In this document: positions 4,439-53,017 of the stretch, piece after piece
Layout: each line of letters begins with the position of its first letter
Numbering within the stretch: the stretch's first letter is position 1
Origin: Eledone cirrhosa
Lineage: Eukaryota
Assembly: GCA_964016885.1 (NCBI GenBank)
Contig: OZ024740.1
Span: 148,738,001 to 148,802,000 of the forward strand
Direction of reading: 5' to 3'
Length of the DNA: 64,000 nt
Notes under the pieces: generated by a model
Told to the model about the DNA's origin: nothing
Database searches by the model: none
What the model saw: the letters and a program-made list of their open reading frames with translations, nothing else
Position numbers and translations under genes: made by a program

Positions 4439-4844
4439 AACCCTACTCCTGACCAGGATCGAACATCAGACAAGGATCCCCACCGGCTATGATTCCTCCA
4501 ACTAGGCCAGCGAGACACCGACAAAAGTATAATGAAAATTGATAATTATAACCTACTTCCAAAATCAAAGTTAAAAAGATGTGCTGTCGTTCATGGCTTT
4601 CCTAGAGCTATTAGTAATATTTAAGGTCGACTTCTGGTCATTATTGAAAGTCTCTGGATTTCGCAAAATACATAATATTTCTTATTGAAGAAGGTAAGAT
4701 ATTTTTCCGCAAAAATTTGATTGCTCTGTTTTGTTTACACTTATGTATTTTCCGAAAATGTTATTTATTCATTATAACAATTAAATGATAGCATTCTATA
4801 TGTAGGTGGGCCCCTTCATCTGCATATCTTCATATATATGGGAT

Positions 4845-5013
4845 AATTGCTGGCCTTGTGCCAAAAGTAGAAACAATTATTACTATATATATATAGTAAT
4901 AATTATATATATATAATAATTATATATATATATAGTAATAATTATTTCTACTTTTGGCACAAGGCCAGAAATTAACCCACTGTATTACTGGTACTTTATT
5001 TTATCGACCCCGT
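4845..5013 (-). mobile_element. SINE 3' fragment with inverted duplication of its tail around (TA)n
   Basis: GGCCTTGTGCCAAAAGTAGAAACAATT at ~4852 mirrored at 4940-4973, continuing into the SINE body TACTGGTACTTTATTTTATCGACCCCG. Confidence 0.8.
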
Positions 5014-11832: not shown

Positions 11833-12017
11833 ATTGTTTCTACTTTTGGCACAAGGCCATCAATTACCCAGTACATTACTGGTACTTTATTTTATCGACC
11901 CCGTAAGGATGAAAGGCAAAGTTAACCTCGGCGAGATTTGAACTCAGATCGTAAAGGGACGTAACTATGCTGGAAAGCATTGCGTCCGACCCTCTACTGA
12001 TACTGCCAATCCACCGA
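11833..12017 (-). mobile_element. tRNA-derived SINE, near full length
   Basis: A box TGGCAGTATCAG, B box GAGTTCAAATC, GCCTTTCATCCTTACGGGGTCGATAAAATAAAGTACC core (Meta-domain-like), (ATT)n tail; a second tail fragment lies at 12036-12108. Confidence 0.85.
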
Positions 12018-12120
12018 TAATAATATGATAATAATAATTGTGTCTACATTAGGCACAAGGCCAGCAAATACACAGTGTATTACTGGTACTTTATTACTGG
12101 TACTTTATGATAATAATAAT

Positions 12121-12888
12121 GATTTCATTTATTGGCCACAGGTGCCGACATGCAGAGGACAATACAAAGACAGGGACAGTGGGATTTACTATAAGCTCGA
12201 GTAAAAGTGCACAATGGCAAGACTAATTTAACAATGAAAATATAGAATAAACTATGCATAAATATAACAAAATACATTCCCCAATAGGGGGGGGGGGGGA
12301 ATGGACGACCCAGGGGTGACTCAGGTACCCCACGAATCCTGAACCACCCGACACTTCTGGGGCACCCGGAGAGGGAAACCCTCTCCTCCTCTAATTAGCC
12401 AACCTGTAGACGCATGGTCAGTGTAGGCTTGCACACACGGGCCATTCTCGCCACATTCATATACCTTTTAGCAAATCTACTAGAGGGCAGCACTTCTCTC
12501 TCCACCTCACCTTCCTTTCCAGGTAAAACTTGAAGAAGTTGACGAGGGATTGGCATAAGAGAAAAGTGTCTGTCTTCAGTCCTTTCAACCTGGTCCACCA
12601 TACAACCCCTTTCGCAACTGTCACCAGGCAGGAAAATTGCCTGCCCTTCCTGCCCAAAGGAAGACGGCGGGTCGATCTATTGGACTCGGCCAATAGCCAG
12701 ATCCGTTCTACACGGTACAACAGCTGTTCGTCTGAACTCCACAAAGCCGTATTGCACAAACATTGTACGAGTGCGTGTAGAACGATTTCGTCGCTCTGCG
12801 CGCATCTCGGGCAGGTCCGTCTGACAGCACTTCCACGCCTGTAGAGTTTATCTCGAACCGTCAGTGACCCCCGGTAGCACTGTCAAGC
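12121..12888 (-). mobile_element. Tx1-clade LINE 3' fragment, second subfamily
   Basis: CYRG.LTVRDKLYR, C..C, VVWWTRLKGLKT; 3' UTR ending CCTGTGGCCAATAAATGAAATC(ATT)n. Confidence 0.85.
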
Positions 12889-12889
12889 G

Positions 12890-13380
12890 GAATGACAACT
12901 ATAATGACGGCAATAATAATAAAAAAAATGGAAACAAATAGAAAGAATGAAGAAAAAGAATGGGAAGGGGAGGGGATAGCAAGAGCTCTGGTGTCGCAGA
13001 AGAGAGGGGAGAAGTAAAGGGGAGGATGATTAGGCCTAGGGCAAGAGGGCAGAGGTGCTGCGCCCCGTGGACGATGGCCTGTGACACCCGCTGCAACAGC
13101 CACCCAACCTCGCGGCGCTCAGTCCTCAGACAGGCCGCCGACGCTCCGATCTTGCGGAGGAGCTCGGCAGTACAGGGTCCAAGTACGCCTGAGGTCTCGA
13201 CGGCGACCGGTGCGAAGATGAAGCGGCCGGACAATCCCCGGTATTTGTTTATTTTACGTTCTTCTGCGAGGCGGGCCGCGATGCAAGGGTTTGTGGCGGA
13301 AGCGACTATGTTGGAAGCGGAGAACGTGTCGCAGAAGGTGTCGTCCCAGATGATGGATCTACCTCCTTCAAAAATGGGAA
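12890..13380 (-). mobile_element. CRE-clade element 3' fragment (RLE domain)
   Basis: ORF 12899-13432: IIWDDT.CDTF, AEERKINKY, FAPVAVETSGVLG, WLLQRVSQAIVHG; homologous to 5078-5836. Confidence 0.82.
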
Positions 13381-14029
13381 GAAAGTGATTAAATTGAACC
13401 GCTATATTCGATTCAAAAATTAAAAAAGACACAAGAAATAGTCTATTTCAATGCCCTCCAGTGTAATATAATTTTAATGAGCTAATCTAAACAACTGGAA
13501 ATAAGTTGGGCCTTCCCAGATGTGTAATTCCTTGAAGGCGAAATGATGCCAAATAAAAGTGAAAGCCTCGTATTCATCTACGAGCATGTATGTTTAATTG
13601 ATTTTCAAACATAATTATTTTAGAAATTATAAAGATAACGATTACATGTTTATTCAGATGTATTTACAGATTTTTTTGTAATATTGCACAAACAAAAAAT
13701 AGAATTTAATGATTAAACTTAATATCTTATTGAATGTAAAAACACAAAAACAAATTCTCCATTCTTAGAGCCTAGCCGATGTTTGCAGATTCGTATATGT
13801 TATCATCTATGATAAAATCAGCTTAACTTTATCATTACATTTACATACACTTAAATAGTAGGTTCCAAATTGTTATGAATTGTAAAATATTATAATATAA
13901 TAATTACAATTAAATAATATTACGCATTTTCATATAATATTATACACGAACACACACACACGCACATATATAAATATATATATATCTATCTATCTCTCTC
14001 TCTATCTATCTCTCTCTCTCTCTCTATAA

Positions 14030-14083
<54 letters not shown>

Positions 14084-14085
14084 AT

Positions 14086-17000
14086 GTACAAAAACAGAGG
14101 ATGTAACAAAAAAAGAAACAATGAAAAATTCCCCAATAGGGGGGAGACTTCCGAGGGCCGTCGTGCTAAAAGCCCATTAAAAAATCCACGATGACCCTGA
14201 CCACCAGGGCAAGTGCCCTCTCCCAGTTTTCCACCTTCAATTTACAGGCACATACTCAGAGTTGGCCTATTCACACGAGTCATTCTTGCCTCTCTCACCC
14301 ATCTTTCAACAAAATGCTGAGAAGAGAGCACTTCCACCTCTACCCTGATTTTCCTTTTTAAATGAAATTTGAAAAAGTTAATCGGGGCATCAACGAAGAG
14401 GTAAGTGCTCGTCTTCAGCCCTTTCAAACGTGTCCACCATACTATCTCTTTCGCCATGGCCCCCAGATAGATAAAAATTGCCTGCCCGTCTCGGCTAAAG
14501 GAGGAGGGCGGAGCAATCCTCACGATGGACTCAGCTGATAGCTGGATCCGTCCTACACGCGACAGAAGGTGTTCGACATAAACCACGAAGTCACCAATGT
14601 TCGGACACGGGACGAGTGCATGCAGGACGCCAAGGTGGAGTTTCCACCGATCACATTACCCGATTGGTCGAGGGCTGTGAGCGCCTGAAGACATTCCAGT
14701 CTCCAGGCGCTCCCTCTCGGTCTTCGCTTGACCCAGGATTGCAGCTCCGTTAAGGAGACGAGCTGGGGAAAGACGCGTCTAGCAAATGGCGACCACACCT
14801 GATCCCTGTCGAGGAATAGGTGGAGATGTTGTAGCCTGAGCACGTGTCTGCGCATCATCGGCCACGGCATGCCCAGCCCTCCACGTAGCAGGTGTTGACA
14901 GCAGATGGACCGCCTGACCATCGGAGCGCGTCCCTTCCACAAAAAGCGAAAGAGCAAACGCTCCAGCGCAGTCAAGCGGGGCTTAGGACAAGGTACGACG
15001 GTCAGGCTGTAGTAGATGACTGACGCGATGTACGCGTTAGCCACCTCCGCTCGACCTTTCAGGGATAGCTTCCTCTCCGCCTATTTCTCGGTGAGAGAAG
15101 CCACCTTGCTCGTCACCTCATTCCAGTTTTTGTCCGTCTGGAGGTCCGGACCGACTCAGACCCCTAGCAATTTAACCGGTCCGTCCGTTCAGCGCCCGAC
15201 GACGCTGTTGGACGGCATGGACCTGCCTCTCCAGGTGCCGAGCTGCAACCCACCGACCTTTCCTGGTTGATCATTGCTCCTGTCACCGCCTCGTATTCTC
15301 TTAGTATAGTGCCGATCGCCTCAATGTGGTTGGCGTTCGACACCACTACGTCCGCATATGCTGACACGGATCTTCCGCATCCTAGTTCGCGCGGGATCCC
15401 CCTCAACGTCTCCAGTTTGTGCAGTAATGGCTCTAGAGTCAATACGTACAAGAGGGACGAGAGGGGACATGCTTGGCGGACCGAGCGCATGATGTTGAAC
15501 GGTTCCGAAAGGTGATCATTCACTCTCACCACAGAGCAGATGTCGCTGTGCATGGCAGCGATCCAGCCTCTGAAGACGGGCCCAAAGCCAGCCGCCCTCA
15601 GGACTGCCGCCAGATAGCGATGGTCGACCCTATCGAAAGCTTTCGACTGATCTAAATTGATCAAGGACCCACCCGTTCCAGGTTCCCTAGCTACCCTCTC
15701 CACGATTTATCGCATGAGGTGGAGGTTGTTGTAGATGGATCTTTCGGGAATGGCGCATGTCTGCGCCTCTCCCACCAGACCACCAACGACAAGCCCCAAC
15801 CTCTTTGCTAGCACCTTGGTCAAAATCTTGAACTCTGTGGTTAGCAGGGTTATGGGCCTGAAATTATCTATGTTATACCCCTTGTTCGGATCCTTTCTCA
15901 GCAACGCCACCGCTCCTCGGCTCACAGAGCTGGGAATTCTCCCGTTCTGTTACCAGTTGCAGTAGACGTCCGCCAAGAGGCCTTCGAACAAGTCTGGCAT
16001 ATGTACGTAACGTTCATAGGGCAGACCATCCAAACCAGGCCATTTACCCCTTGTGAAGCCAGTCATTTCCACCCATATTTCAGTTGTTGCTATCGGCTTT
16101 ATCCGCCTCTGTGGGCGAGAGCCGCGGCAGTCCGTCGCGGTAGATACTAAAGTCCATCCCTCGATCCGGCCCGCCGCTGCCCCTGAGCAGCTGAGCGAAG
16201 TGTTGCTGAAAAGCTTCACACATTTGCCTGGGATCGAGTAGCATGCGCCCGTCGTGGTTCACCAAAGACCGGATCGTGGCTTTGTTGCCACGACGCGCCT
16301 CCGTCACTCGGGCCCATTGAACGGCTTTCGTCCCCTCGTGTCTGAGAGCACGCACCCTGGCTCTGACAACGCAGCCTTCGTGCTTTGCAATGAAGAATAG
16401 GACAAGGATCAATTACGCCGCAAGTACGTCTGTAGCGATGCTTTTTCTAAGCGCTCCGTCTAATTTTCTAACCAGTTCTCCCTCTGCTCTATTTTTCTCT
16501 ATTGCTAAAGCCTTACTAAACTTAATGGACTCTATTCTAATCGCTCTTTCCAGAGCAAACCACCATTTGTTGCTGACGATGGCCCCTGTCAACGCCCGCT
16601 TAACTAGTTCGCTAATCCGGTCTCTGTAGGCCTTGCGCGTTGTTAATGACGCGTTCAGATTCCAGTAGCCGGGTCCTTGTCTATGAAGCCTATCTAAGTC
16701 AACCACACAGATCACGAATTTGTGGTCCGTGTAGCTGACTATCTTGAATTGTGGACAGCCTATGCTAGACCTATCAATTTCCCTACAAAATACTCTATCT
16801 AGATATGATCTGGATGACCCTATACGATTTGTCCAAGTCCACATTGGCACATTCGGGAAATCCAATCGGTACCTGTCAGACAGTTCAAAACGCCCGAGCA
16901 GGTTGTTGAGGCTCTTGCACCGTCCTCCCCTATCCGGTAATCCTACACAGTCCCAGCGTGCATCCAACATCCCGTTCCAGCCGCCCACAAACACTAAAGA

Positions 17001-19385
17001 GCGGGACGTTCCAAGAAAGGTCTCCAGACGACGGAAGAAATCAGGCCGCCGTGTCGGGGCATAGACGCCCACTAGCCTGAAAGTTTGCCCATCTCCGCTG
17101 GTCAAGTCCAGCACCACCAACTTACCTTCTGGGTCCAGGAAGATGGCCCTTATGGCGAGTTCCAAACCACTCCGAAAAAGCACAGCAATTCTCCCCCCGA
17201 TCCAGGACGGCTGGGAGATGCGTATACATCGTAGCCGCCTAAGATCGGTGCGAAGGCCCGTGCTTCGGAGGTTCTGGTCTCGCTGATGGCCACCACATCT
17301 ATGTTTAGTGACCTGAGGTCGTTGAGCAGGTGGCCCTACTTCCATGACGACCCCAAGCCACATGCATTTATGCTGCCTATTCTGAATGAGGTCATGTTAA
17401 AAAGGAGTGGAAAAAGATAGGAAAGACCACTTACTCACTTTTCGTAGGGTGAGGATGGTTTGTCCATCCTTCTCATTGCTTGTGGCCTCCTCCGGAAGGA
17501 TGTCCTTATAAATACTCCTGGAGAGTGTTTGTCGGAAGTCTCCGATGTCTTTGGGAAATTTTTGTTTTAGTGTCATGTACGTTTTCTGTGTGATGCGAGT
17601 GATTTGTATGTGTGGAGGTGGTGTGAATTTTTGGGGTGTTGTGTAGTCTTTATCTGTGATGCTGGAGTGGATGGTGGCATAACTGTCTTATCTTTTTTGT
17701 TTGTTTGTTTATTTGTTTCCCCCTGCATTTTGTTTTTGGAGGGGGAAGGAAGAGGATTTTTTCTTTATTGGGTTCTTTTTCTTTTTTTTTCTGATACAGT
17801 CTCCCACTCCTCGTCGTCACAATCTGTCTCCAGTTGCGATATGTCGGGGGGTGGAAAATCCTCCACAGGCGTTGGTTTTGGTTGTGGCGTGGCGGATGGT
17901 GGAGGCGCTGGTGCTAATTCTAGCATGGTGGGTGGTGGTGGTGTTGGTTTTGCTACTGTTGCTGGGGTTGTTGCTGCTACCGTTGCTTCTGTTGTTGCTG
18001 CTACAGTTGTTGCTGCATTTCTGCTGCTGGTGGTGTTGATGGTTGAGTCACTGGGGTGGGTAAGAGAGGTGGCCTCAACTTTTTAGCCTGAGGGCAGAAA
18101 GCCTTTAGGTGGGTTCCTTCACCACAAACGACACACCTAGGCCTTCTACCCGCGACGATTACGGTGAGGTGGCTGCCGTCGGTGAGGTCTATCACCTCTG
18201 GAATTTCCTCAATGTTTTTTGGTCCGCTTCGATCAGGAGGTCCATCCCAGATCCGGACCAGTTCTCCTGCTTTTCTTTCGTTACTTCAATTATTTTCGAG
18301 TTGGCCTCGATACCGGCGAGGACGGCAGCCATTAGCCGGGGAATTTCGATGGCCGGTGGAACGTGGGTCACCCTGATCTTCACGAGTCTCTGACCACAAT
18401 AGCTTGGGACGAGTGTGAAGTCGTCACTTCTTAACGGTGCCATGGAGTGCTCTCTGGCTTCCTGTGGTGTTCCAAAGAACACGTCCACGGTTCTATATTT
18501 CTGCCCACGTCTGATGTGGGTTTTTTTCGCCCATGTCCCAAAGCTTTTTGTATGTGGGACACGGATACTCGTTCCACTCGGCGTCATTTTGTGTTTATTG
18601 GCCGATATGTCACGGTGCATAGGCGCCGATGCTCCATTTTATTAGATGTTGACCCTGTACCCATCTTTATTTATCATTCTCTTGGCTTCATTTAATTCAT
18701 CCCGGCTTACCTCGATTGTTTCGCTTTTCTTGGCTGCTTTGTCAAATGACACATTTTGTTTTGCTGTGGTGTTGATGTTGTTATTCTCATTGTTGTTGTT
18801 GTTGCTGTTGTTGTTATTGTTATTTTTAGTTGCTGTTATTGTTATTTTTAGTTGAGGTGGTGGTGGTGTCAGTGGTCTTCGGCGTGGAAGAGTCGATTCT
18901 GGGTGAATCCATTTCGATGTCACGAGATAATAATTTTTTTTTCTGTGGTCTCTGTGGTGGTGTTCGTTGTTCTTTTTGACATTGTGGTGGTGAGGGTGGC
19001 GGCTTTAACACCTGCAGTTATTGGTAATGGCGGGAAATCCATGTCTTTATGCGGTAAATCTAAATAATTGAGACTGCTATTAATTATATTTTCAGTGTTG
19101 GCAACCGTGGCAAGGCTTACAATGGTGTTGGTCGTGGTGGGGGAGGGGGATGTTGGTTTGTTAAAAACAGGAAATTTGTCGTCCATGTTTTTTTTTCAAA
19201 GAAATATTTTGTTTGATATTGGGGCTCAAGGCCCCAATATTCTTTGGTGTCCTTTTCAGAAAGCAATATATGTGAACTTATAAACACTTAACAACAAAAA
19301 TTTTCCATAACTGGCAATTTGAAACAACTGAAAACAACAGACCTTTGCGGAGTTCACGATAATACGATTTCTTACATAGGTCGCC
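14086..19385 (-). mobile_element. Tx1-clade LINE, 5'-complete but decayed (frameshifts, internal deletion near 14628)
   Basis: ORF1 pieces with CVVCGEGTHLKAFC knuckle; ORF2 APE/RT pieces (16413-17363, 15164-15925, 14242-15044) highly similar to 21195-27078; 5' end GGCGACC abuts (ATT)n. Confidence 0.93.
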
Positions 19386-19404
19386 AATAATAATAATAAT
19401 AATA

Positions 19405-19439
<35 letters not shown>

Positions 19440-19624
19440 TGTTTCTACTTTAGGCACAAGGCCAGCAATTACCCAGTACATTACTGGTACTTTATTTTAT
19501 CGACCCCGTAAGGATGAAAGGCAAAGTCAACCTCGGCGGGATTTGAACTCAGATTGTAAAGGGACGTAACTATGCTGGAAAGCATGGCGTCCGACCCTCT
19601 ACTGATACTGCCAATCCACTGCCC

Positions 19625-19625
<1 letters not shown>
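19440..19625 (-). mobile_element. tRNA-derived SINE, full length, inserted in (AAT)n
   Basis: A and B boxes, conserved core, GGCCTTGTGCC tail; (AAT)n on both sides (19386-19439, 19626-19688). Confidence 0.9.
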
Positions 19626-19688
<63 letters not shown>

Positions 19689-21141
19689 CAAGCACTCGAC
19701 AATGAGGGAAAGGATAAGGAAGGAATGTTACCGCAGAGTAAGAGCAATCTTAAGAACGGAATTGAATGCAAGGAATAGGATCGATGCCATAAACACGCTT
19801 GCCATACCAGTAGTAACCTACAGTTACAATGTCATCAACTGGTCAAGCACAGAGATCCGTAGGCTCGATACAAAAATTCGAAAATTATTAACCATGCACA
19901 GAATGCATCACCCTAAAGCAGATATAGATAGAATATATCTCCCTAGGAAAGAAGGAGGACGTGGGATAATCCAGTTAGACATTGCGTTGAAAACTGCAAC
20001 AATTGGATTATCTACATATCTAAGGGAATCACATGATTGGATGATCAAACTCGTTTTGAAACACGAAAGCATCAAAAGATCATATTCCATTACAAAAGAT
20101 GCACAAAGATACAGTAATGGACTACAAATTTCAGAAGTCCCATTTACTGCTGAAATGGAAAACACAGAAAAAGCAAAGCAGGTAAAAGTAACTACAAAGA
20201 AAGAACTGCTACAGAAACTGGCTAAGAAATGGCAAGAAAAGCCTCTGTATGGAAAATACCCAGAGCGAGCTAACAATCCTGATGTTGACAAAACTTTAAC
20301 CCATCAGTCAGTGGTTGGCATCCTCTGGACTGAAATCGGAGACTGAAGGACTGATTATATCAGCACAAGATCAGTGTCTGCCAACAAAAAATTACCAAGC
20401 CAACATAATAAAAAATGGGTGCAGCCCATTATGCCGTGTATGCAACAAACAACCAGAGACCATTGACCATATAATTTCAATGTGCAGTCCTATAGCTCCA
20501 ACCGAATACCTAAACAGGCATGACAGAGCTGCACAATACATACATTGGATAATGTGTAAGCATTTTGACCTGCCCCATCAAAAGAATTGGTGGGAGCATC
20601 AACCACCTCCCATACTTGAAAAAGATCACATCTCAATCTTGTGGAACTTTAGCATCCAAACAGACCGAAAAATAGATGCAAACAGATCTGATATAATATT
20701 GAAAGACTTTCAAAAGAGGGTATGCCTGCTAATTGATATGTCTATCCCAATAGACAAGAATGTATCTATAAAAACATTTGAAAAATTGAGCAAGTATAAG
20801 GACCTGGAGATAGAAATTGGAAAAATGTGGAAATTGAGAAGTAAAACAATACCAGTGGTTGTAGGCGCTCTGGGAATGATATCTAAGGGGTCTAATGATT
20901 ACATATCGCAAATCCCAGGAAACCCGCGTATAGGAGAAATACAAAAGATAGTACTAATGGGAACTGCCCATATACTAAGGAAGATTCTGTCAATATAAGT
21001 ACATCACAAGTCTAAACACTAAAGATGCATGTGTGAATATGTATGTTATTTCTTGAACATGGCGGACCTTGTTGTCTCTTGAGGTCACTGGTTGTGACTT
21101 GGTGATAACTCGTATGAACATAAAGCAAGATAAATGCAACT

Positions 21142-21142
<1 letters not shown>
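19689..21142 (+). mobile_element. R4/Dong-clade retrotransposon, 5'-truncated, in (TAA)n
   Basis: HHPKADIDRIYLPRKEGGRG; ETEGLIISAQDQ; CRVC...ETIDHIISMC; RHD; NRSD; LIDMSIP; KLSKYKDL; IPVVVGALG; frameshift from a CAGT duplication at ~20305-20312; (TAA)n both flanks. Confidence 0.9.
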
Positions 21143-21195
<53 letters not shown>

Positions 21196-21437
21196 TTTTC
21201 TTTATTAACCACAAGGGTTCACATAAAGTAGACATTAAGGACAGTACAGGACAATACAGGACGGTACAAATGGGCATTTCTGCGTGTAAAAAAACAGAGG
21301 TTGAAATAAAATAACAAAGAAAAATTCCCCAATAGGGGGGAGACTTCCAAGGGACATTTGTGGAGAAAGCCCATTAAAAGACCACAGTGGCCCTGACCAC
21401 CAGGGCAAGTGCCCTCTCCCAGTTTTCCACCTTTAAT

Positions 21438-24400
21438 TTACAGACACATACTCAGAGAAGGCCCATTCATTCGGGCCATACTTGCTTCTCTCACCCATCT
21501 TTCAACAAAATGCTGGGAAGAGAGCACTTCCCTCTCTACCCTGATTTTCCTTTTCAAATGAAATTTGAAAAAGTTAATCAGGGCATCACCGAAGAGGTAA
21601 GTGCTCGTCTTCAGCCCTTTCAAACGTGTCCACCATACTATCTCTTTCGCCATGGCCACCAGACAGATAAAAACTGCCTGCCCTTCCAGGCTAAAGGAAG
21701 GGGGCGGGGCAATCCTCACGATGGACTCAGCTGATAGCTGGATCCGTCCTACACGTGACAGCAGGTGTTCGACATAAACCCACAAGTCAGCAATGCTCGG
21801 ACACTGGACGAGTGCGTGCAGGACGGTTTCGTCGCCCTGCGCGCATCTCGGACATGCCCGGCTGACGGCACCTCCATGCCTGTAGAGTTTATCCCGAACT
21901 GGCAAAGCTCCTCGGTAGCACTGCCAGGCCAGGGATTTCTGGAAGTTGTCCATAGGCCCCGGCCCGAAAGTCCTTCCGAAGAGATTGGCTAGTTGATTTT
22001 CGTCGACGCCTAGAGTTTCTCCAAGTACGTCGTCGCTCTTCCCCTCCACTAATCACCTATAGAACGCCAAGGTGGAGTTTCCACCGATCACATTGCCCGA
22101 TTGGTCGAGGGCTGTGAGCGCCTGAAGACATTCCAGTCTCCAAGCGCTCCCTCTCGGTCTTCGCTTGACCCAGGACTGCAGCTCCGTCAAGGAGACGAGC
22201 TGGGGAAAAACGTGTCTTGCAAACGGCGACCACACCTGATCACCGTCGAGGAAGAGGTGGAGATGTCGTAGCCTGAGCGCGTGTCTGCGCATCATCAGCC
22301 ACGGCATGCCCAGCCCTCCACGTAGCGGGTGTTGACAGCAGATGGACCGCCTGACCATCGGAGCGCGTCCCTTCCACAAGAAGCGAAAGAGCAAACGCTC
22401 CAGCGCAGTCAGGCGGGGCTTAGGACAAGGTACGACGGTCAGGCGGTAGTAGATGACGGATGCGATGTACGCATTCGCCACCTCCGCTCGACCTTTCAGG
22501 GATAGCTTCCTCTCGGCCCATTTCTGGGTGAGAGAAGCCACCCTGCTCGTCACCTCGTCCCAGTTTTTGTCCGTCTGGAGGTCTGGACCGAACCAGACCC
22601 CTAGCAATTTAACCGGTCCGTCCGTCCAGCGCCCGACGACGCTGTTGGACGGCATGGACCTGCCTCTCCAGGTGCCGAGCTGCAGGCCCACTGACTTTTC
22701 CTGGTTGATCATTGCTCCTGTCACCGCTTCGTATTCTCTTAGTGTAGTGCCGATCGCCTCGATGTGTTTGGCGTTCGACACCACTACGGTGACATCGTCG
22801 GCATATGCTGACACGGATCTTCCGCATCCTAGTTCGCGCGGGACCCCCCTCAACGTCTCCAGTTTGTGCAGTAATGGCTCGAGAGTCAATACGTACAATA
22901 GGGACGAGAGGGGACATCCTTGGCGGACCGAGCGCATGATGTTGAACGGTTCCGAAAGGTGACCGTTCACTCTCACTACAGAGCAGATGTCTCTGTGCAT
23001 GGCAGCGATCCAGCCTCTGAAGACGGGCCCAAAGCCAGCCGCCCTCAGGACTGCCGCCAGATAGCGATGGTCGACCCTATCGAAGGCTTTCGACTGATCT
23101 AAATTGATCAAAGACCTACCCGTGCCAGGTTCCCTAGCTACCCTCTCTACGATGTATCGTATGAGGTGGAGGTTGTCGTGGATGGATCTGTCGGGAATGG
23201 CGCATGTCTGTGCCTCTCCCACCAGACCACCAACGACAAGCGCCAACCTCTTTGCTAGCACCTTGGCCAAAATCTTGAACTCTGTGTTTAGCAGAGTTAT
23301 GGGCCTAAAATTATCTATGTTATCCCCCTTGTTCGGATCCTTTCTCAGCAGCGCCACCGCTCCTCGGCTCACAGAGCTGGGAATTCTCCCGTTCTGTTGC
23401 CAGTTGCAGTAGACGTCCGCCAAGAGGCCTCCGAACAAGTTTGGCATTTGTACGTAAAGTTCATAGGGCAGACCATCCAAACCAGGCGATTTACCCCTTG
23501 TGCAACTAGTCATTGCATCCCGTACTTCAGCGGTCGTTATCGGCTTTTCGCAACACTCCGCCTCAGTGGCCGAAAGCCGCGGCAGTCCGTCGAGGTAGAC
23601 ACTAAAGTCCATCCCTCGATCCGGCCCGCCACTGCCCCCGAACAGTTGAGCGAAGTGACGCTGAAAAGCTTCACACATTTGCCCGGGATCGAGTAGCATG
23701 CGCCCGTCGTGGTCCACCAAAGACCGGATCGTGGCTTTGTTGCCACGACGCGCCTCCGCCACTCGGGCCCATTGAACGGCTTTCGTCCCCTCGTGTCTGA
23801 GAGCACGCACCCTAGCTCTGACAACGCAGCCTTCGTGCTTTGCATTGAAGAATTGGTCAAGGGCCAATTTCGCCGCAAGCACGTCGGTCGCGATGCCTTT
23901 GCTAAGCGCCTCATCTAATTTTCTAACTAATTCTCCCTCTGCTCTATTTTTCTCTATTGCTAAAGTCTTACTAAACCTAATGGACTCTATTCTAATTGCT
24001 CTTTTCAGAGCAAACCACCACTTGTTGTTGACGATGGCCCCCGTCAACGCCCGCTTAACTAGTTCGCTAATCCGGTCTCTGTAGGCCTTGCGCGCTGGTA
24101 AGGACGCGTTTAGCTTCCAGTAGCCGGGTCCTCGTCTATGAAGCCTATCTAAGTCAAGCACACAGATCACGAATTTGTGGTCCGTGTAGCTGACTATCTT
24201 GAATTGTGGACAGCCTATGCTAGACCTATCTATTTCCCTACAAAATACTCTATCTAGATATGATCTGGATGACCCTATGCGATTTGTCCAAGTCCACATT
24301 GGTACATTCGGGAAATCCATTCGGTACCTGTCAGACAGTTCAAAACGTCTGAGCAGGTTGGTGAAACTCTTGCACCCTCCTTCCCTATCCACTAATCCCA

Positions 24401-24857
24401 CACAATCCCAGCGTGCATCTAAGATCCCGTTCCAGTCGCCCACTAACACTAAAGAGCGGGACGTTCCAAGAAAGGTCTCCAGACGCCGGAAGAAATCAGG
24501 CTGCCCTGCTCCTGTCGGGGCATAGACGGCCACTAGCCTGAAAGCTTGGCCGTCTCCGCTGGTCACGTCCAGCACCACCAACTTACCTTCTGGGTCCAGG
24601 AAGATGGCCCGTATGGCAAGATCCAAACCTCTCCGAAAAAGCACAGCAACTCCTGCCCCCGATCCCGGACGGCTGGGAGATGCGTACACATCGTAGCCGC
24701 CGAAGATCGGTGCGAAAGCCTGTGCTTCGGAGATTCTGGTCTCGCTGATGGCCTCTACATCTATGTTTAGTGACCTGAGGTCGTTGAGCAGGTGGCCCTG
24801 CTTCCATGACGACCCCAAGCCACGCGCATTTATGCTGCCTATTCTGAGTGAGGTCAT
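21438..24857 (-). CDS. Tx1 ORF2: APE endonuclease + reverse transcriptase + C-terminal zinc finger (one in-frame TGA at 22053-22055)
   Basis: SINARG, ISET, VYAP, GDWN, YLDRVF, TDHK (APE); KSPGLDG, FRPITLLN, DQSKAFDRVDH, VRQGCPLS, YADDV (RT); CPRC...ETVLHALVQC; 21438-22049 continues in the same frame. Confidence 0.93.
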
Positions 24858-24891
24858 GTTGAAAAGGAGTGGAAAAGATGGGAAAGACCAC

Positions 24892-26872
24892 TTACCTTAC
24901 TTCTCGTAGGGGAAGGACGGTTTTTCCATCCTTTTCACTGCTTGTGGCCTCCTCAAGAAGGATGTCCTTATAAATCCTCCTGGAGGGTGCTTGTCGGAAG
25001 TCTCCGATGTCTTTGGGGAATTTTTGTTTTAGTGTCATGTACGTTTTCTGTGTGATGCGAGTGATTTGTATGTGTGGAGGTGGTGTGAATTTTGGGGTTG
25101 TTGTGTAGTCTTTTTCTGTGATGCTGGTGTTGTGTTGGATGTAGTGTAATAATTGCTTGTTGTTCAAATTTAATGCTGTGTAGTGTGTATCGTTTTGGTT
25201 GTTTTGTTTTGTTTGCGTTTGTTGTGTTTCGTATTTTGGTGACTTTTGTGGTGTAGGTGATGGTGGTGCTGGGGTTAATGATGGTGATGGTGTTGGTGTT
25301 TGGGTTGATGGGGTTGGTGATGCTGGTGTGGATGGTGGCATATCTGTCCTAACTTTTTTGTTTCTTAATTTATTTGTTTCCCTCTGTATTTTGTTTTTGG
25401 AGGGGGAAGGAAGAGAATTTTTTCTTTTTTGGTTTCTTTTTTTTTTCCGGATATCGTTTCCCACTCCTCGTCGTCACAATCTGTCTCCAGTTGTGATAGG
25501 CCCGGGAGTGGAAAATCCTCCACAGCCGTTAGTTTTGGTTGTGGTGTGGTGGATGGTGTAGGCGCTGGTGCTAGTTCTGAAGCGTTGGGTGGTGGTGGTG
25601 TTGGTTTTGCTGGTGGTGGTAGTGTGTTGGTTTTGCTACTGTTGCTGGGGTTGTTGCTGTTATAGTTGCTTCTGTTGCTGCTGCTACAGTTGTTGCTGGC
25701 ATCTCTGCTACTGGTGGTGTTGATGGTTGTGTCACTGGGGTGGGTAGGAGAGGTGGCCTCAACCTTTTAGCCTGAGGGCAGAAAGCCCTTAGGTGGGTTC
25801 CTTCACCACAAACGACACACCTAGGTCTTCTGCCCTCGACAATTACCGTGAGGTGGCTGCCGTCAGTGAGGTCTATTACCTCTGGGATCTCCTCATTGCT
25901 TTTTTGGTCCGCTTGGATCAGGAGCTCCATCCCAGATCCGGACCAGTTTTCCTGCTTTTCTTTTGCTATTGCTATTATTTTCGTGTTGGCTTCGATGCCG
26001 GCGAGGACAGCCGCTATTAGCCAGGGAATTTCGATGGCCGGTGGAATGTGGGTCACCCTGATCTTTACGAGTCTCTGGCCACAATAGCTTGGGACGAGTG
26101 TGAAGTCGTCACTTTTTAATGGGGCCATGCAGTGTTCTCTAGCCTCCTCTGGTGTTTCAAAGAACACATCCACGGTTCCATACTTTTGCCCACGTCTGAT
26201 GTGGGTTTTTCTTGCCCACACATGTCCCAAAGCTTTTTGGATTTGGGACTCGGATGCCCGTTCCACTCGGCGCGATTTTACATTTATTGTTCTATACGAC
26301 ACGGTGCATAGGCGCCGATGCTCCATTTTATTAGGTGGCGGGGGTGAGGCTGACCCTGTACCCATCTTTCTTTACCATTTGTTTGGCATTTTCTAAATCC
26401 TCCTGAGTTACCGTGAATGCTTCAAACTGTTTTGCTACTATGGCGAAACTGAGGGTCGGTTTTATAATGTCATTGTTGTTGTTGTTGCTATCGTTATTTG
26501 TGTTAATATTAATTTTAGTTTCAGTTGTGGTGGTGGTGACGTCAGTCGTCTTTGGTGCGGAAGAGTCCATTTTGCTTGATTTCATTTCGACATCACGAGT
26601 TAATTTATTTTTTTCTTCTTTTGTTTCTGTTGTGGCGGTGGTGGGGGGATGGTGGTTGTCGCGGTGGTGGTGGTGGTGGAGGCTTTAACACCTGCAGTCA
26701 TTGGTAATGGCGGGAAATGAATGTCTGCCTGAGACAAATTTAAAATATTGCTACTGCTTATATTTTTTTTTGTGTTGGCAAACGTAGTAACATTTACAAT
26801 GGTGGTGTCGGTGTGAGGTGTTAATTTGTGAGGAAGGCTTTCAGCTGCTTGTTGGAGAGGTGAATTAGCCAT
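24892..26872 (-). pseudogene. Tx1 ORF1 (gag-like, CCHC zinc knuckle), frameshifted
   Basis: ATG at 26872; CVVCGEGTHLRAFC (CX2CX4HX4C); Thr/Pro-rich and basic segments split over four ORFs. Confidence 0.85.
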
Positions 26873-27264
26873 TTTCTTCAAAGAAATTTTTGATAATAAT
26901 AAAAGTTTAAATTTTGGGCACAAGGCCCCAATCTTTTTGGGTGTCCTTTTCGGAAAACAATGTATGTGCGCTTATAAACAGTTAGCAATAAAATTTTCCA
27001 TAAATGACAATTTTTAACAAACGGAAATAACAAACCTTTGCGGAGCTCACGATGATACGATTTACTACGTAGGTCGCCAATAATAAAAATAATAATAATA
27101 GGGAAGAAAAACGCACGTTGTGGATATATCGTTATGGAATCGCTCCCGTAAGTTTTTGATTTTTACATAATTAAAACAACTGTGATAGAATAATTCTTAT
27201 TACAAATGAATCATAAGATTACAGTTTTACTCTCAGCAAGCGACAACGCATCACATTATGACAT

Positions 27265-27740
27265 AGGGCCCCAATATTTAATATTTAATTTTGGATCAGA
27301 AATGTTATAGTCAAAGAAGAGGAAAATGGCTACGTGGACAGACAGGCAAATAATTTCACCAGCAACACCACCACCGCGACCATCACCACTACCACACCAA
27401 AAAGATCTAGCCAAGTTACTCCAACTTCTTTTTCTACTTCAACTTCAACACCATCACTACAGTACTACGATCACACCACCACCACCACTGCCTCATTATT
27501 GCTACCGCCGCTATTCTCTCCTACTACCACCTGCTAAGACAGAGGTATCGTAGTATTCCCACTAAGTGAGGAAGGCATCAAAAGACATAATGATTCGATG
27601 ATCCTGTCAAAAATTCAAAAAATCAAAAATCAAAATCAAAACAGCACAGCAGTAACGAAAAGCGTAAAGAAAAGAAAAAAGAAAAGAAAAACAAACAAGC
27701 AAACTAACAAAAAAACTAAGTCAGACATTCAAACATTACA
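27265..27740 (+). mobile_element. Probable decayed Tx1 ORF1-like fragment in opposite orientation
   Basis: GCCCCAATAT as in the Tx1 5' UTR, Thr/Pro runs, and KKRKKKRKTNKQTNKKTKSD similar to ETNKQTNKKDKT in the 14-19 kb copy. Confidence 0.4.
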
Positions 27741-27819
27741 TTACAATGAAACTTATGCTTATTTTTTAAGGTTTTTACCTATTTGTTTGTTTGTTTATTT
27801 ATGTTCGTCTACAGCGTGA

Positions 27820-30800
27820 TAGTGCCACGCTAAAATCACCGGGGATGATCAAATCACTGGGGGTAATGAAATCACCGGTGGTTATGTGACCATACATTCA
27901 CCAATCCTCGATATGAGTGTTTAAATGTCGAACCTAAACAGTTCGAATAACGGTGAAGTGGAGACTGGAATGTCATGTGACAGACTCTCACACAGCAGGT
28001 GCTCCCTGGCCCAGCAACAGGGACCTGGCTGTCATCCAAATACTGCTGGTGTTGGAGGAAGAAGAAGAAGGAAAGGGACCAGAACCAACTGGACGAAAGA
28101 ATTCAATAGAACTGTTATGCAATGTTACCTGAAGAGTAACCCCAAGGAAATAGGCTATAGGAAACGGATGCATAACATCTGGAACGAGATTGGTCTATTT
28201 AAATTAGATGAACAAAAATTGGCCGAGCAGGCTCCGGTAATAAGAACTAATGGGTGGATAAGTGAGCTGGAACTGGAGGAACTCAGCAGAGAGATTAGGT
28301 TGGAAGTGGAGAGGGGAATATGCCAGGCAAACGAGCCAGAGGGAGATGAAGGTGGAGAAGAGGTTGAGAGACCGGAGGAAGCATCCGAAGCAGACAATGA
28401 TCTGAATGCTGAAATAAATAACATCTGGAACAAAGATGCGGCCATTGAGGAAATGAATGCTGACGGGCTAGGACAAGATTTGGTTGATATCCTAAACTTA
28501 GTGGTAGATGAATTGAACAATGATAGCGGGAAACCTATGAACCTAAGATTTGTAGACAGGAAAAAGTTAAAAGAAACAACAGTTAAAGTAAACAAAGTCA
28601 TCCCATACCTTGAGGCGAGGAACCTTCACCAGTGCAACAATATCCTCAAAGCAACAGCAAATGCGGTGAGGAAATTACTTGGCATAAAAGCGAGAGGAAA
28701 CAACAAACAAGAAAGATCAGAACCTTGGTGGAAGAAACGACTGAATGGCCAAATCAGGGAAATGAGAAATGACATTGGAAAGCTTGAGTCCCTACTGAAT
28801 GGGACACTAAAAAACATAGACACTAAAAATAGACTGGAAATAAAGTACAAAACTAGGAGGAAAAAACTAAATATTATCATAGAGGAACTGAAGCAACGCA
28901 TTGTAGCAAAGAGCGCAAATATTAGGCGATACGAGAGCAGAGTCAGTCAGTATAGACAAAACTGCATGTTTGACAACAACCAGAAGATGTTGTTTGGACA
29001 GCTTGAAGGGAAAGAAAGGGGCAACGACTTGATCCCTGAGGCGGAACAAACTAAGACATTCTGGAGAGGAATATGGGAGCAGGGTGTTGAACATAATGAT
29101 CAGGCAGTGTGGATTGAGACAATACAAAAGGAGATTAGTGAACAGGCACACCAACAAACTGATTTGAGTATCACAGTTGAAACTCTTAAGGGGCAGGCTA
29201 GAAAACTAACCAACTAGAAATCACCAGGCGCAGATGGTGTGCAGGGGTATTGGATTAAAAATATAACATCCCTGCACCTGAAACTGACAACCATGTTCAA
29301 TGACTGCTTGATGTCAGGTGAGGTACCAGAGTGGTTGACAAAAGGTACCATAGTTCTGGTAATGAAAGACCGAATCAAGGGTAATGATGTTACATGTCTA
29401 TCCGTAATGCGGAAACTGTTAACAAGCATTGTGTCTGAGGAAATATACCATCACTTCCACATAAACAACTTGTTACCGGACGAATAGAAAGAATGCCGAA
29501 ACAAGTCCCGTGGTACAAAGGACCAGTTACTTATTGATAAGATGGTAATGAGGAATTGCAAGAGGAGACACACTGATCTTGCCATGGGATGGATAGACTA
29601 CAAAAAGGCATTTGACTTGGTGCCTCATTCTTGGATCACCAAAAGCCTAGAGATCTTCAAGGTGGCAGATAACATCAGACAGTTGTTGAGCAAAAGTATG
29701 AAGTCCTGGAAAACAGAGTTAACATCGGCTGGAGAATCCTTGGGAGGCGTGAAGATCAAGAGAGGTATCTTCCAGGGAGATAGTCTGTCCCCTCTGTTGT
29801 TTGTCCTTGCCCTGATGCCCCTGACTATTATACTGCGAAAAGTGAGAAAGGAAAGGGAGAGCTTACCATAATTCACCTCCTCTTCATGGACGAAATGAAG
29901 CCCTTCGGGAAGAGTGAGAAGGAGTTGGATATGCTTGTTGAGACTGGCCGTATTATCAGCAATGATATATGTATGCAATTTGGTATTAGTAAGTGTGGAG
30001 TCATTGTGATGAAGAGGGGTAAATTGAGCAGAAGCAACGGAATCCAGGTACCAACAGGTGAGATGATAAAGGAAATTGACACTGAAGAAGGATACAAATA
30101 TTTAGGTGTTCTGGAGGCAGATGACACCAAGAACAAAAAAATGAAGGAATTGATAAGATCTGAGTACATTAGGAGAGTAAGGAGTGTATTAAAATCACAT
30201 CTAAATAGTAGGAATGTCATAAGTGCAGTGGATTCCCGAGCTGTGTCTATTATTAGGTACAGTACGGGAATTCTGAAATGGAATGTTGCTGAACAAAAAG
30301 AAATGGATAAGAAGACTAGGAAGCTATTGACTATCTACGACATGTTCCACAAGAGGAGTGATGTCGATAGACTCTACTTAAGGAGATCTGAAGATGGAAG
30401 TGGTCTTATCAGCATAGAGGACTGTGTTCAGATGGAGAAAAACAACCTACACAAATACGTGACTGATAGTAGGGAGCCAATGCTCAGAAATGTACTGAAG
30501 GAGAGGACAATAGACCATGGGATGTCCAAGGAGGAAATAACAACAAGGAGAAAGAGCAACCTTCATGAAAATCCCTTCATAGTACCTTCTTTGAGAAAAC
30601 TGAATTCAGAGATCCACAGACATGGAACTGGTTGAAAAGAGGAGACCTTAAAACGACTACAGAAGGAATGTTAATGGCTGCGCAAGAGCAGGCCTTCAAA
30701 ACGAAGTGGGTGAAACACCATATTTACAAGGAGGAGGCTAGCCCACTCTGTAGGATCTGTGGAGAAAGAGAGGAGACTGTGGCTCACATTGTATCCGAGT

Positions 30801-31400
30801 GTAAACACCTAGCCCAGACTCACTATAAAGGCTGGAGACATGATGTGATGGGCAGGGTGATCCACTGGCACCTATGCAAAGTAAACAATTTACCACATTC
30901 TGAGAAGTGGTATGAGCATAAGCCAGAGGCGGTGATAGAAAACGATCAGGTGAAGCTGCTGTGGGATTTTAGGATACAGACGGACAAGAAACTGGAACAC
31001 AATAGACTTGACCTGGTGATTTAGGACAAGGAAAAAAGATCGTGCCTGATTGTGGATGTGGCCTGCCCATTCGATACGAGAGTGAAAGAGAAGGAGAGGG
31101 AGAAAATTAACCGATACCAGGACTTAAAGTGGGAGGTAAAAAGGATTTGGAACTGCCATGAGGTCAAAGTGGTCCCGATTGTCATAGGCGCACTAGGTAC
31201 TATCTCAAAGAGTTTCCAAGGATGGTTTAAGAAAATTGGCCCCGCCCCGCTTTTTGGAACACTTCAAAAGGCATGCTTTGCTGGGAACAGCAAGAACCCT
31301 CCGATACGTCCTGAATATCTGAGGCTGCAGGTAGTGGCTTGATATTCATTTCAACAAACTTTCCAGTTAACTAACACCAATGACTGAAACTCAAAGAAAA
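27820..31400 (+). mobile_element. R4/Dong-clade retrotransposon, near full length, decayed
   Basis: [110 protein letters not shown]; several stops and frameshifts; ends in (AAT)n. Confidence 0.92.
27833..27886 (+). repeat. 18-bp tandem repeat x3 at the Dong 5' end
   Basis: AAATCACCGGGGATGATC / AAATCACTGGGGGTAATG / AAATCACCGGTGGTTATG. Confidence 0.8.
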
Positions 31401-31429
31401 ATAATAATAATAATAATAGTAATAATAAT

Positions 31430-32172
31430 GCTTTCTTTATTAACCACAAGGGTTTACACAAAGTAGACATTAAGGATAGTACAGGACAATACAGGACGGG
31501 CATTTCTGCGTGTAAAAAAACAAAATAACAGAGGATGTAATAAAAGAACAATGAACAATTCCCCAATAGGGGGAAACTTCCGAGGGCCATCGTGGAGAAT
31601 ACCCATTAAAAAAACCCACGGTGACCCTAACCACCAGGCCAAATGTCCTTTTCCAGTTTTCCACCTTGAATTTACAGGCATATACTCAGAGTAGGTACAT
31701 TCACTCGGGCCATTCTTGCTTCCCTCACCCATCTTTCAACAAAATGCTGGGAAGAGAGCACTTCCTTCTCTACCCTGATTTTCCTTTTCAAATGAAATTG
31801 GAAAAAGTTAATCAGGGCATCACTGAAGAGGTAAGTGCTCGTCTTCAGCCCTTTCAAACGTGTCCACCATACTATCTCTTTCGCCATGGCCACCAGACAG
31901 ATAAAAACTGCCTGCCCTTCCCGGCGGGAGGAAGAGGGCGGGGCAATCCTCACGATGGACTCAGCTGATAGTCGGATCCGTTCTACACGCGACAGCAGGT
32001 GTTCGACATAAACCCACAAGTCAGCAATGCTCGGACACTGGACGAGTGTATGCAGGACAGTTTCGTCACCCTGCGCGTATCTCGGACATGCCCGGCTGAC
32101 GGCACCTCCATGCTTGTAGAGTTTATCGCTTACTGGCAAAGCTCCTCGGTAGCACTGCCAGGCCAGGGATTT
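31430..32172 (-). mobile_element. Tx1 3' fragment inserted in the (AAT)n tail of the Dong element
   Basis: ORF 31672-32181 is near-identical to 21438-22049; same 3' UTR. Confidence 0.92.
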
Positions 32173-45433: not shown

Positions 45434-45528
45434 TGACTTTGCCTTTCATCCTTACGGGGTCGATAAAATAAAGTACCAGTAATGAACTGGGTATTTGCTG
45501 GCCTTGTGCCTAAAGTAGAAACAATTAC
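45434..45528 (+). mobile_element. 5'-truncated SINE
   Basis: TGACTTTGCCTTTCATCC...GGCCTTGTGCCTAAAGTAGAAACAATTA. Confidence 0.85.
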
Positions 45529-45592: not shown

Positions 45593-45780
45593 TGTTTCTA
45601 CTTTTGGCACAAGGCCAGCAATTATGCCAGTGCATTACTGGTACTTTATTTTATATACTCCGTAAGGATGAAAGGCAAAGTTAACCTTGGCGGGATTTGA
45701 ACTCAGACCATAAAGGCGCATAACTCTATATTGGAAAGCATAGCGTCCGACCTTCTACCGATACTGCCAATCCTCCGCCC
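45593..45780 (-). mobile_element. Full-length SINE with 18-bp target-site duplication
   Basis: TTTACGAATATTAATAAT at 45575-45592 and 45781-45798; rearranged SINE pieces follow at ~45815-45932 (+). Confidence 0.88.
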
Positions 45781-49024: not shown

Positions 49025-49061
<37 letters not shown>

Positions 49062-49108
49062 GTGTGTATATATGTATGTATATATATATGTATGTATATA
49101 TATATGTA

Positions 49109-49719
49109 TGTCAGGTCACCAGTTGGTGCTACTGGTAACATGTATCCCAGTACAACCTGTCTCATGGTCGGGTCGTTGGCGACTAAACTAGCAACCCCGC
49201 CAAGGTTTCTTGGTGAGGAGGGTGACTTTGGACATCCTGCAGGACTAAAAACAAAACCTGTCAAAGGGCAAAGGAACTCTTAAGAGTCAATGACCATCCA
49301 AAATCACCGGGAGAGATGACCCCTTAGCCTTTGTCAAGGCAGAATTCTAGGAGAAGGAAAACTCTGATATAACACCTGCAACCCTGATGGTATCCAATGA
49401 TGTTGACTTGTTCTTCTTTTTGGTAAATATCATCTTGGTTAAGAGAGTGGGACTGGCTTTGTGCAGTGCCTTTGCTCACTATAAAAGCTTCACGGCACAG
49501 GCATTGCTTTGTATCTGGAGATCTCTCTGCACTTGTCGTCACATGGTACCATGGGCCCAGCACTATGTGTCAATAATTGTCACAGGTGTAGTGTTTGTAC
49601 CAGAGTTTTCAAGTCGCTGGCTGGACTAAAAAGTCACACTCGTTCAGCGCAACGGTAGGAGTTCTCCTACATGGATATAAAGTAGTGGCCGTACTCGAAA
49701 ACGAGTTGGCAGCCACCAT
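49109..49719 (+). mobile_element. ~610-bp non-autonomous RTE-derived element, family E
   Basis: CTAGGAGAAGGAAAACTCTGA RTE-5'UTR-like motif; 3' CSVCTRVFKSLAGLKSH zinc-finger remnant; ACTCGAAAACGAGT terminal hairpin; three copies in window. Confidence 0.75.
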
Positions 49720-49821
49720 ATATATATATGTATGTATGTATGTATATATATATGTGTATGTACATATATATGTATGTATATATATATGTATGTATATATG
49801 TGCATGCATACATATATATAT

Positions 49822-50415: not shown

Positions 50416-50634
50416 TATATATGTAAATATGTATGTATATATATATATACACATATATGTATATATGTATGTATATTTATATATACATATAATATATATA
50501 CACATATATGTATATATATATATACACACATATATGTGTATATATATACACACACATATGTATATATGTATGTATATATATATGTATATATGTATGTATA
50601 TATGTATATATGTATGTATATATATATATATATA

Positions 50635-51267: not shown

Positions 51268-51387
<120 letters not shown>

Positions 51388-51578
51388 TAATTTAATATAT
51401 CAACTAACATAAGCGCACAGATGCACGCCCATGCCAGCAAATACACAGGTTATGTCATAGTACCTAGGTGGTTCAATGCAGGAGAATGCAGAACAATAAT
51501 ATAAAGGACGTAAAATAAGAAAATATTTTTTTAAAAAAATTTTTTCTAAAAAAAATTTTTTTACTTACTTAAATTTTC

Positions 51579-51660
51579 ACTCCAACTAATTAGTTTCTGC
51601 AATGGGATAAAGACAGTTACGTAATCCAACTGTCGAGAATTCATTGCGTCATCAGGGAGT
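51579..51660 (-). ncRNA. Type I hammerhead ribozyme motif, unit 1
   Basis: Reverse complement of 52864-52945. Confidence 0.8.
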
Positions 51661-52945: not shown

Positions 52946-53017
52946 GAAAATTTAAGTAAGTAAAAAAATTTTTTTTAGAAAAAATTTTTTTAAAAAAATA
53001 TTTTCTTATTTTACGTC

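Follow-up and report, generated by a model that had tools for sequence, protein, structure and literature searches.

Results

A 64-kb stretch of the Eledone cirrhosa genome (3.0 Gb), hereafter the window, whose coordinates are used throughout, contains between 11.8 and 32.2 kb a stack of retroelements embedded in (AAT)n pads. The minus strand of this stack carries two near-full-length and two truncated long interspersed elements (LINEs) of L1/Tx1-like type, the plus strand carries two Dong/R4-like elements, and the stack also includes copies of a 185-nucleotide (nt) short interspersed element (SINE; Table 1). Our subject is the relationship between this SINE and the Tx1-like LINE: the SINE is likely copied by the Tx1 enzyme, because the two share the same terminal hairpin motif and the same insertion footprint.

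Terminal hairpins of the SINE and the LINE

In element sense, a first-pass annotation of the window had read the Tx1 ends at 21207-21219 and 31442-31454 as AACC-CTTGT-GGTT followed by 12 nt and (ATT)n, and the SINE end at 19453-19463 as GGC-CTTGT-GCC followed by 13 nt, and these letters, positions and spacers all hold. For the Tx1 copy at 12134-12146, the reading GGCA-CCTGT-GGCC plus 13 nt stands as well; its full pairing does not, since the loop-closing position is an A·G mismatch, and from its letters this copy looks like a decayed member of a GGCC-CTTGT-GGCY subfamily. The (ATT)n tail ascribed to the SINE has to be given up: the ATTAT behind most copies is target duplication rather than templated sequence, and at least three ATT units follow just 1 of 48 3'-complete copies.

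The motif CYTGTGSY occurs 25 times in the window (10.5 expected; a count reached in 0 of 100 shuffles), and the pattern TGT-N5-CYTGWG-N3-AATAAA has 23,564 matches in the genome against 22 for its reversed control. C-CYNGT-G hairpins followed by AATAAA terminate five subfamilies (a to e) of one L1/Tx1-like lineage, and among ten copies from these subfamilies, invariant columns make up 14 of the last 30, as opposed to 12 of 270 in the remaining 3' untranslated region (UTR); the hairpin and AATAAA end is the only conserved part of the Tx1 3' UTRs. The AATAAA is invariant across all Tx1 tails examined and is missing from the SINE.

The suggestion that loop and spacing are kept while the stem changes and still pairs was borne out by covariation: over 12 rows, 43 of 48 cells are paired, double changes occur in three of the four pairs, and the score of 0.42 was matched by none of 500 shuffles, none of the six slid controls exceeding 0.114. 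The SINE and Tx1 hairpins have in common the loop, the closing pair and a spacer of 12-13 nt, and the second pair is flipped from C-G to G-C and remains paired. The Tx1 hairpin is predicted in context, with a probability of 0.47-1.0 for the three inner pairs, and folding of the last 45 nt alone gives the SINE hairpin a probability above 0.5 in 93 of 93 copies. The tail hairpins are not more stable than those of shuffled sequences (z from -1.6 to +0.55 for six 60-nt tails). Judged from alignments and folding, a terminal stem-loop with a conserved loop and compensatory stem changes is common to the SINE and Tx1, the SINE hairpin being predicted locally only.

Comparison of the last 30 nt of the SINE with the tails of LINEs points in the same direction. 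In these short alignments, which depend on anchoring at the end, low p values were obtained with the tails of Tx1 subfamilies b, c, d and e (p = 0.0025-0.013) and of the decayed copy at 12121 (p = 0.027), and not with those of CR1 (p = 0.80), RTE (0.86) or Dong (0.74 and 0.26). A LINE family matching the SINE tail better than Tx1 was sought and none was present among 1.74 Mb of loci, chosen in part by these motifs: no other family at the 883 ATT-preceding ends contained there has a like tail, and other ATT-ending clusters score at most 19 against that of the SINE.

Identity and targets of the LINE

The second open reading frame (ORF2) of the LINE encodes an APE endonuclease, a reverse transcriptase (RT) and a C-terminal zf-RVT domain (Pfam), and among solved structures it is closest to human L1 ORF2p (E = 1e-52, vs. 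1e-20 for R2). The only named sequence match for the protein is the 'Transposon TX1 uncharacterized 149 kDa protein' (32%), and a relative from Argonauta reaches 57%. The translation of ORF1 contains CX2CX4HX4C, a CCHC zinc knuckle of the kind that separates Tx1 from mammalian L1. In a quick RT tree of 35 rows, none of which is a named L1 or Tx1 reference, the Tx1-like families of this genome form one clade (support 100) that lies inside a 19-row group (SH-aLRT 90) together with a U2-adjacent, Keno-like locus; CR1 and RTE fall outside, and Dong and one further locus (L143) dropped out of the tree. Judged from the domains, the ORF1 knuckle and the target preference, the lineage likely belongs to the Tx1 clade. 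Metagenomic relatives of the LINE are distant (22-36% identity), and a like tail was absent from the nine of 80 whose 3' flanks were inspected, several of which had no clear end. One metagenomic Tx1 relative (L390, 4999-5079) is followed directly by a piece of U2 small nuclear RNA, as in Keno.

The subfamilies differ in the repeats in which they end: a, b and c in (ATT)n, d in (ATCT)n, and e in ATCT- or ACTA-like repeats. Full-length Tx1a heads are preceded by (ATT)n in 30 of 30 cases. The same 3' hairpin occurs in sister Tx1 families located in (ATCT)n, for which one pattern alone has 3,477 matches, and because these sisters end in (ATCT)n, the ATTAT at the SINE points to the ATT branch. Tx1 tails end in C/ATTATT (the slash marking the junction), which is itself a target and would thus account for the head-to-tail stacks. 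Sampled CR1 copies have a templated (ATT)n tail and are a possible source of the ATT pads used by Tx1, Dong and the SINE.

Insertion footprint and recent activity

The SINE was surveyed through random genome stretches and exact patterns. There are 104 matches in 600 kb of random genome sequence, and an exact 34-nt tail occurs 107,162 times, so that the genome has at least 107,162 copies. At 38 of 101 SINE ends, a duplication of at least 10 bp starts precisely with the 3' end; these duplications are 10-21 bp long and indicate the target Y/ATTAT(T). Among 48 copies, 16 have a duplication, against 0% with swapped flanks. The copy at 45593-45780 does have the 18-bp duplication beginning with ATTATT that had been noticed initially. 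Where SINEs have inserted into a CR1 3' UTR (L224 and L264), ATTATT pre-existed in the target.

Duplications of the ATT-type Tx1 subfamilies measure 8-19 bp. At short ATT sites, 9 of 23 truncated Tx1b copies have duplications of 8-18 bp at their 5' boundary, six of them at least 10 bp long (control, 3.4%), and the ATCT-type families show 10-17 bp in 5 of 24 (control, 7%); those of Tx1a are not resolvable within pure arrays. For L1-type elements, target duplications of 7-18 bp are given in PMC6007223. The SINE and Tx1 thus have a common signature, namely duplications, 8-21 bp in length, whose first letters are ATTAT and whose start coincides with the 3' end of the element. They also share their polarity within (AAT)n, opposite to that of Dong, as had been proposed: both Dong copies in the window are on the plus strand, and each of 20 Dong copies scored in the genome ends in (TAA)n.

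At short ATT sites, 8 of 30 Tx1b copies measure no more than 26-34 nt and consist of just the hairpin and spacer. They may reflect a stall at the hairpin or a selection effect, and may offer a ready route for tail swaps. One SINE body (L295, near 1500) terminates with the spacer of Tx1b in place of that of the SINE, perhaps through a tail swap.

Both families have been active recently, at the resolution of a coarse age comparison, because the last 251 nt of Tx1a are identical in 40 of 40 scored genome copies and the nearest neighbours among SINEs are up to 99.5% identical. The 52 full-length SINEs diverge from their majority sequence by 0.6-10.1%, and Tx1b copies are 79-100% identical to the nearest reference.

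The SINE carries an A-box-like TGGCAGTATCGG and a B-box-like GAGTTCAAATCC, both read by eye; ARAGORN and Rfam show no tRNA there, and Rfam returned nothing real for either the SINE or the Tx1a leader. The SINE may be akin to the octopus OR1/OR2 SINEs. At 4841-5013, two SINE ends face each other across an AT-rich near-palindrome.

A second resemblance, in the Tx1a leader

Across the 5.9 kb of Tx1a, the best match to the last 30 nt of the SINE is in the 5' leader, at 26891-26932, with a score of 33 (maximum of 27 in 60 shuffles), and spans the hairpin, the spacer and then ATTATTAT. A 20-nt pattern from this leader occurs 2,308 times in the genome. We considered and rejected the leader as a separate short element: it runs on into ORF1 in 30 of 30, 29 of 30 and 25 of 25 copies, and in the sole exception a SINE has inserted behind the hairpin. 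In all six leader types found, each with an ORF1 match, a GC-rich hairpin with a U-rich loop precedes the ATG by about 30-70 nt; four of the six look homologous in sequence, and the hairpin of subfamily a has a CTTGW loop and SINE-like flanks. In a sequencing run from another organism, two contigs match this part of the leader across 35-37 nt, apart from 4-5 differences, and at least one of the contigs continues into sequence resembling the long form of the SINE. The likeness of leader and SINE tail is real, because its score exceeds those of the shuffles and the match recurs in the contigs of another organism. There are three readings of it: the SINE took its tail from the leader, a piece of a SINE overwrote the leader hairpin in subfamily a, or leader and SINE tail imitate one ligand of ORF2p. 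The match could reveal a second route to SINE tails.

Features of the window

Table 1. Retroelements and hairpins of the window, with the SINE and Tx1-like LINE copies and the Dong/R4-like elements used for comparison.
Feature	Position	Strand	Details
Full-length Tx1-like LINE, subfamily a	21195..27078	-	Leader about 205 nt, ORF1 with CCHC knuckle, ORF2 endonuclease-RT-zf; Pfam Exo_endo_phos, RVT_1, zf-RVT
Tx1a 3' hairpin AACC-CTTGT-GGTT with 12-nt spacer including AATAAA	21195..21219	-	Pair probabilities 0.65-0.91 in 215-nt context
Tx1a leader segment resembling the SINE tail: GGGC-CTTGT-GCCC hairpin, spacer, then ATTATTAT	26891..26932	-	About 45 nt upstream of the ORF1 ATG
Second near-full-length Tx1a-type copy, lacking the 3' tail	14082..19385	-	Leader hairpin 19211-19240: 10-bp stem, CTTGA loop, fold z -3.3
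Tx1a copy, 5'-truncated, same 3' hairpin (31442-31454) as 21195..21219	31430..32172	-	
Tx1 subfamily b copy, decayed, 5'-truncated	12121..12890	-	Hairpin 12134-12146, closing pair mismatched
SINE, full-length, 185 nt, inside (ATT)n array	19440..19624	-	Hairpin 19453-19463
SINE, full-length, with 18-bp target duplication	45593..45780	-	
SINE copy	11835..12014	-	
SINE, 5'-truncated, directly 3' of the Tx1b copy	12039..12095	-	
SINE, 5'-truncated	45434..45523	+	
Dong/R4-like element, 5'-truncated, ends in (TAA)n; comparison element	19689..21142	+	Polarity opposite to Tx1 and SINE
Longer Dong/R4-like element; comparison element	27100..31399	+	Head to head with Tx1a

The full-length Tx1a copy contains frameshifts and a stop, and the element at 19689-21142 is presumably of the Dong/R4 clade. 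Adjoining the Tx1b copy is an open frame of 182 amino acids (12899-13447, minus strand) that has no Pfam match and may be the end of another non-LTR element. Elsewhere in the window there is a PIF1-like helicase in two frames (7044-8496, plus strand), probably derived from a Helitron; a unit of about 720 bp in three copies (49025-50519 and 57055-57778; 89-93% identity), the last of which adjoins an ARAGORN call of tRNA-Ser(GGA) at 57903-57976; and, at 51377-53025, direct and inverted repeats of 99.4-99.8% identity that represent a recent rearrangement or an assembly artefact.

Discussion

The proposal that this SINE is mobilised by the ORF2 of the Tx1 clade finds support in the similarity of tails, the covariation of the stem, the polarity, the length and start of the target duplications and a coarse overlap in age, and the rivals that were sampled fail. 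We consider it very probable that the partner of the SINE is the Tx1-like LINE of the ATT type, and probable, with somewhat less assurance, that Tx1-like ORF2p copies the SINE by choosing its RNA through the terminal C-CUUGU-G hairpin, recognition of the loop being the inferred part. A mechanism modelled on that of ZfL2, as far as it is set out in PMC4176376, would run as follows: ORF2p would bind the CUUGU loop of the RNA; the endonuclease would nick the AAT strand at 5'-Y/ATTAT(T) sites; the freed 3' end would pair with the AUUAU at the end of the RNA and prime reverse transcription 12-13 nt behind the hairpin; and a second nick 8-21 nt away would yield the duplication.

Several observations weigh against this interpretation. 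The tail of Tx1a in the window is not significantly similar to that of the SINE (p = 0.058), its score of 20 is no higher than 59 of 60 best scores from shuffled elements, and the region of Tx1a most like the SINE tail is the hairpin of the 5' leader, not the 3' end. What is shared amounts to some 25-30 nt, and the similarity hinges on an end-anchored alignment. We looked for a Tx1 family having the exact stem of the SINE, and the nine matches were eight SINEs and one mutated Tx1. The covariation reflects roughly a single event for each pair, in rows that are related, and of its five measures two are ordinary (34/500 and 61/500). When SINE copies are folded at full length, the hairpin probability exceeds 0.5 in just 16 of 93, and the AATAAA in the Tx1 spacer, which the SINE lacks, may be kept as a poly(A) signal. 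LINE diversity was sampled from 1.74 Mb of 3 Gb, at loci chosen partly by these same motifs. Finally, of the two profiles on which the original proposal was to be judged, age overlaps coarsely and the target agrees in the type of duplication, but the SINE is much less restricted to ATT arrays: 13,469 of about 107,000 SINEs (~12%) stand before at least four ATT units, whereas over 90% of Tx1b copies are in ATT arrays (2,136 vs. 173 at two-unit sites), the search patterns for the two families not being identical. The looser target choice of the SINE likely reflects a shorter AUU end of its RNA, which would need fewer target repeats for pairing.

Some of these points would fit a model in which Tx1 moves the SINE with relaxed recognition, an AUU-rich 3' end being sufficient and the hairpin being kept for another role, e.g., 3'-end formation near the AATAAA. 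The scarcity of the hairpin in full-length folds of the SINE, the ordinary stability of the tail hairpins and the invariance of AATAAA in Tx1 tails all favour such a model, which we nevertheless regard as improbable: the SINE has retained the loop, the closing pair, the spacing and a flipped but paired second pair, yet not the AATAAA. Moreover, an AUU end alone seems insufficient, because CR1 RNAs also end in (AUU)n and CR1 copies do not have Tx1-type duplications. This bears equally on a young CR1-clade LINE as the partner itself, which has the polarity of the SINE and ends in (ATT)n behind an AGTGC-ACCTGA-GCACT hairpin. With at least 2,612 exact tails, many open frames of 945 amino acids, a CCTGA within its loop, short ATT runs of 1-9 units and CR1 partners on record for SINEs of molluscs (in the relevant passages of PMC4824008 and PMC11481361), CR1 is a natural candidate, but its tail has no similarity to that of the SINE (p = 0.80 and 0.96), its loop is 6 nt and its spacer 15 nt, and duplications of at least 7 bp were present at the boundary in 0 of 25 copies (three being internal breaks, not true ends) and without regard to boundaries in 3 of 53, near the 3.3% of the control. 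The ATT run of CR1 is a templated tail and not a duplicated target, the reverse of what is seen in the SINE. We consider a CR1-driven SINE largely refuted and very improbable.

It is scarcely more credible that a LINE outside the sample, or one now extinct (another CR1/L2, an RTE or an I/Nimb element), supplied both tail and enzyme, and that the likeness to Tx1 is due to convergence. The 1.74 Mb read are a small part of 3 Gb; RTE-clade LINEs make duplications of 7-15 bp, as stated in PMC6007223; and in squids, Sepioth-SINEs carry GAC-CTTGT-GTC in a 3' part given as of unknown origin in PMC5786205, where the supplement places it, in Sepioth-SINE1 and 2A, after an A-run and about 40 nt from the end. 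Yet the SINE is active now, and therefore its partner should be active too; the RTE family that we found ends in (GAT)n and has duplications in 3 of 19 copies, all of low complexity; and no other ATT-ending cluster rises above the score of 19 against the SINE tail. As for Dong/R4, which shares arrays with the SINE in the window and could have moved it into common (AAT)n pads, its opposite polarity, uniform among the copies scored, refutes this reading, and its tail has no match to that of the SINE, leaving it with virtually no probability.

The Tx1-like LINE and its SINE can be set beside several known systems. In UnaSINE/UnaL2, ZfL2-1 and ZfL2-2 (as described in PMC4176376), and in the pairing of bivalve CORE and V SINEs with CR1/L2 (from the parts of PMC4824008 that treat it), there is likewise a short terminal hairpin, with a conserved loop and a compensated stem, followed by a simple repeat; here, in contrast, the partner is L1/Tx1-like rather than L2, CR1 or RTE, the shared part is shorter, some 25-30 nt with a stem of 3-4 bp, and the pair is a candidate proposed from sequence. 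Closer in the identity of the partner is the crocodilian SINEU/Tx1-Mar, the sole Tx1 pairing that we found in the literature as far as the sources go, in which a SINE was likewise assigned to Tx1, through shared target and age; that assignment was argued from target preference and from U1/U2 heads common to SINE and LINE, and the relevant passages of PMC4494074 report no LINE match to the 3' part of SINEU-1, whereas in Eledone a putatively tRNA-type SINE shares a 3' motif with its candidate LINE, and insertion is into a microsatellite. In maize (ZmSINE2/3 with LINE1-1_ZM) and Chlamydomonas (SINEX-3 with L1-1_CR), a LINE of the L1 group likewise has a conserved, compensated 3' hairpin in common with the SINE (PMC3472496, in its account of these pairs), but the L1s concerned come from plants and algae and end in poly(A).

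With respect to targets, the Tx1 families Kibi, (TC)n, and Koshi, (TTC)n, and those of crocodilians, (TTCC)n/(TTTC)n, are similarly APE-type elements with a preference for simple repeats, as opposed to (ATT)n and (ATCT)n here, neither of which is named for Tx1 in the corresponding passages of PMC4494074 and PMC3812793; Dong is there given (TAA)n as its target. Among octopods, the OR1/OR2 CORE-SINEs are tRNA-type and very abundant. Where they are named in PMC4824008 and PMC5804259, the passages give no partner LINE. Bivalve SINEs use CR1, CR1-Zenon, L2 and Nimb, according to the reports that list them, and among the families given as active in the annotation of Octopus vulgaris are L1-Tx1, Dong, CR1 and RTE, its account of which states no pairing. 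Our search of the literature returned no Tx1/SINE pair sharing a tail, and older papers on octopus SINEs and Repbase reports could already name the partner.

The L1 group is a known exception among LINEs: in the list of tail-sharing SINEs in PMC3472496, L1-type partners account for 3 of 58 pairs, all of them plant or algal, and neither a Tx1 partner nor a cephalopod figures in the list as given. Stringent RNA recognition by the ancestral L1 is treated as an open question in the sections of PMC3472496 and PMC3747384 that address it. One might go further and suppose that a stringent animal Tx1 lineage kept its C-CYNGU-G hairpin through a switch of target from ATT to ATCT, that the leader of its subfamily a holds a second copy of the motif, so that ORF2p may bind both ends of the RNA, and that the SINE tail came from this leader hairpin rather than from the 3' end of the LINE, a combination that we consider unlikely, if less so than the rivals weighed above.

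The octopod SINE and Tx1 form a well-supported candidate pair, in a partnership rarely described for the Tx1 group. If it is true, it would name the driver of a SINE with a copy number in excess of a hundred thousand, and the question of the ancestral L1 would become testable in an animal Tx1 that has a 13-nt recognition hairpin, stems that vary naturally, two targets and copies of young age.

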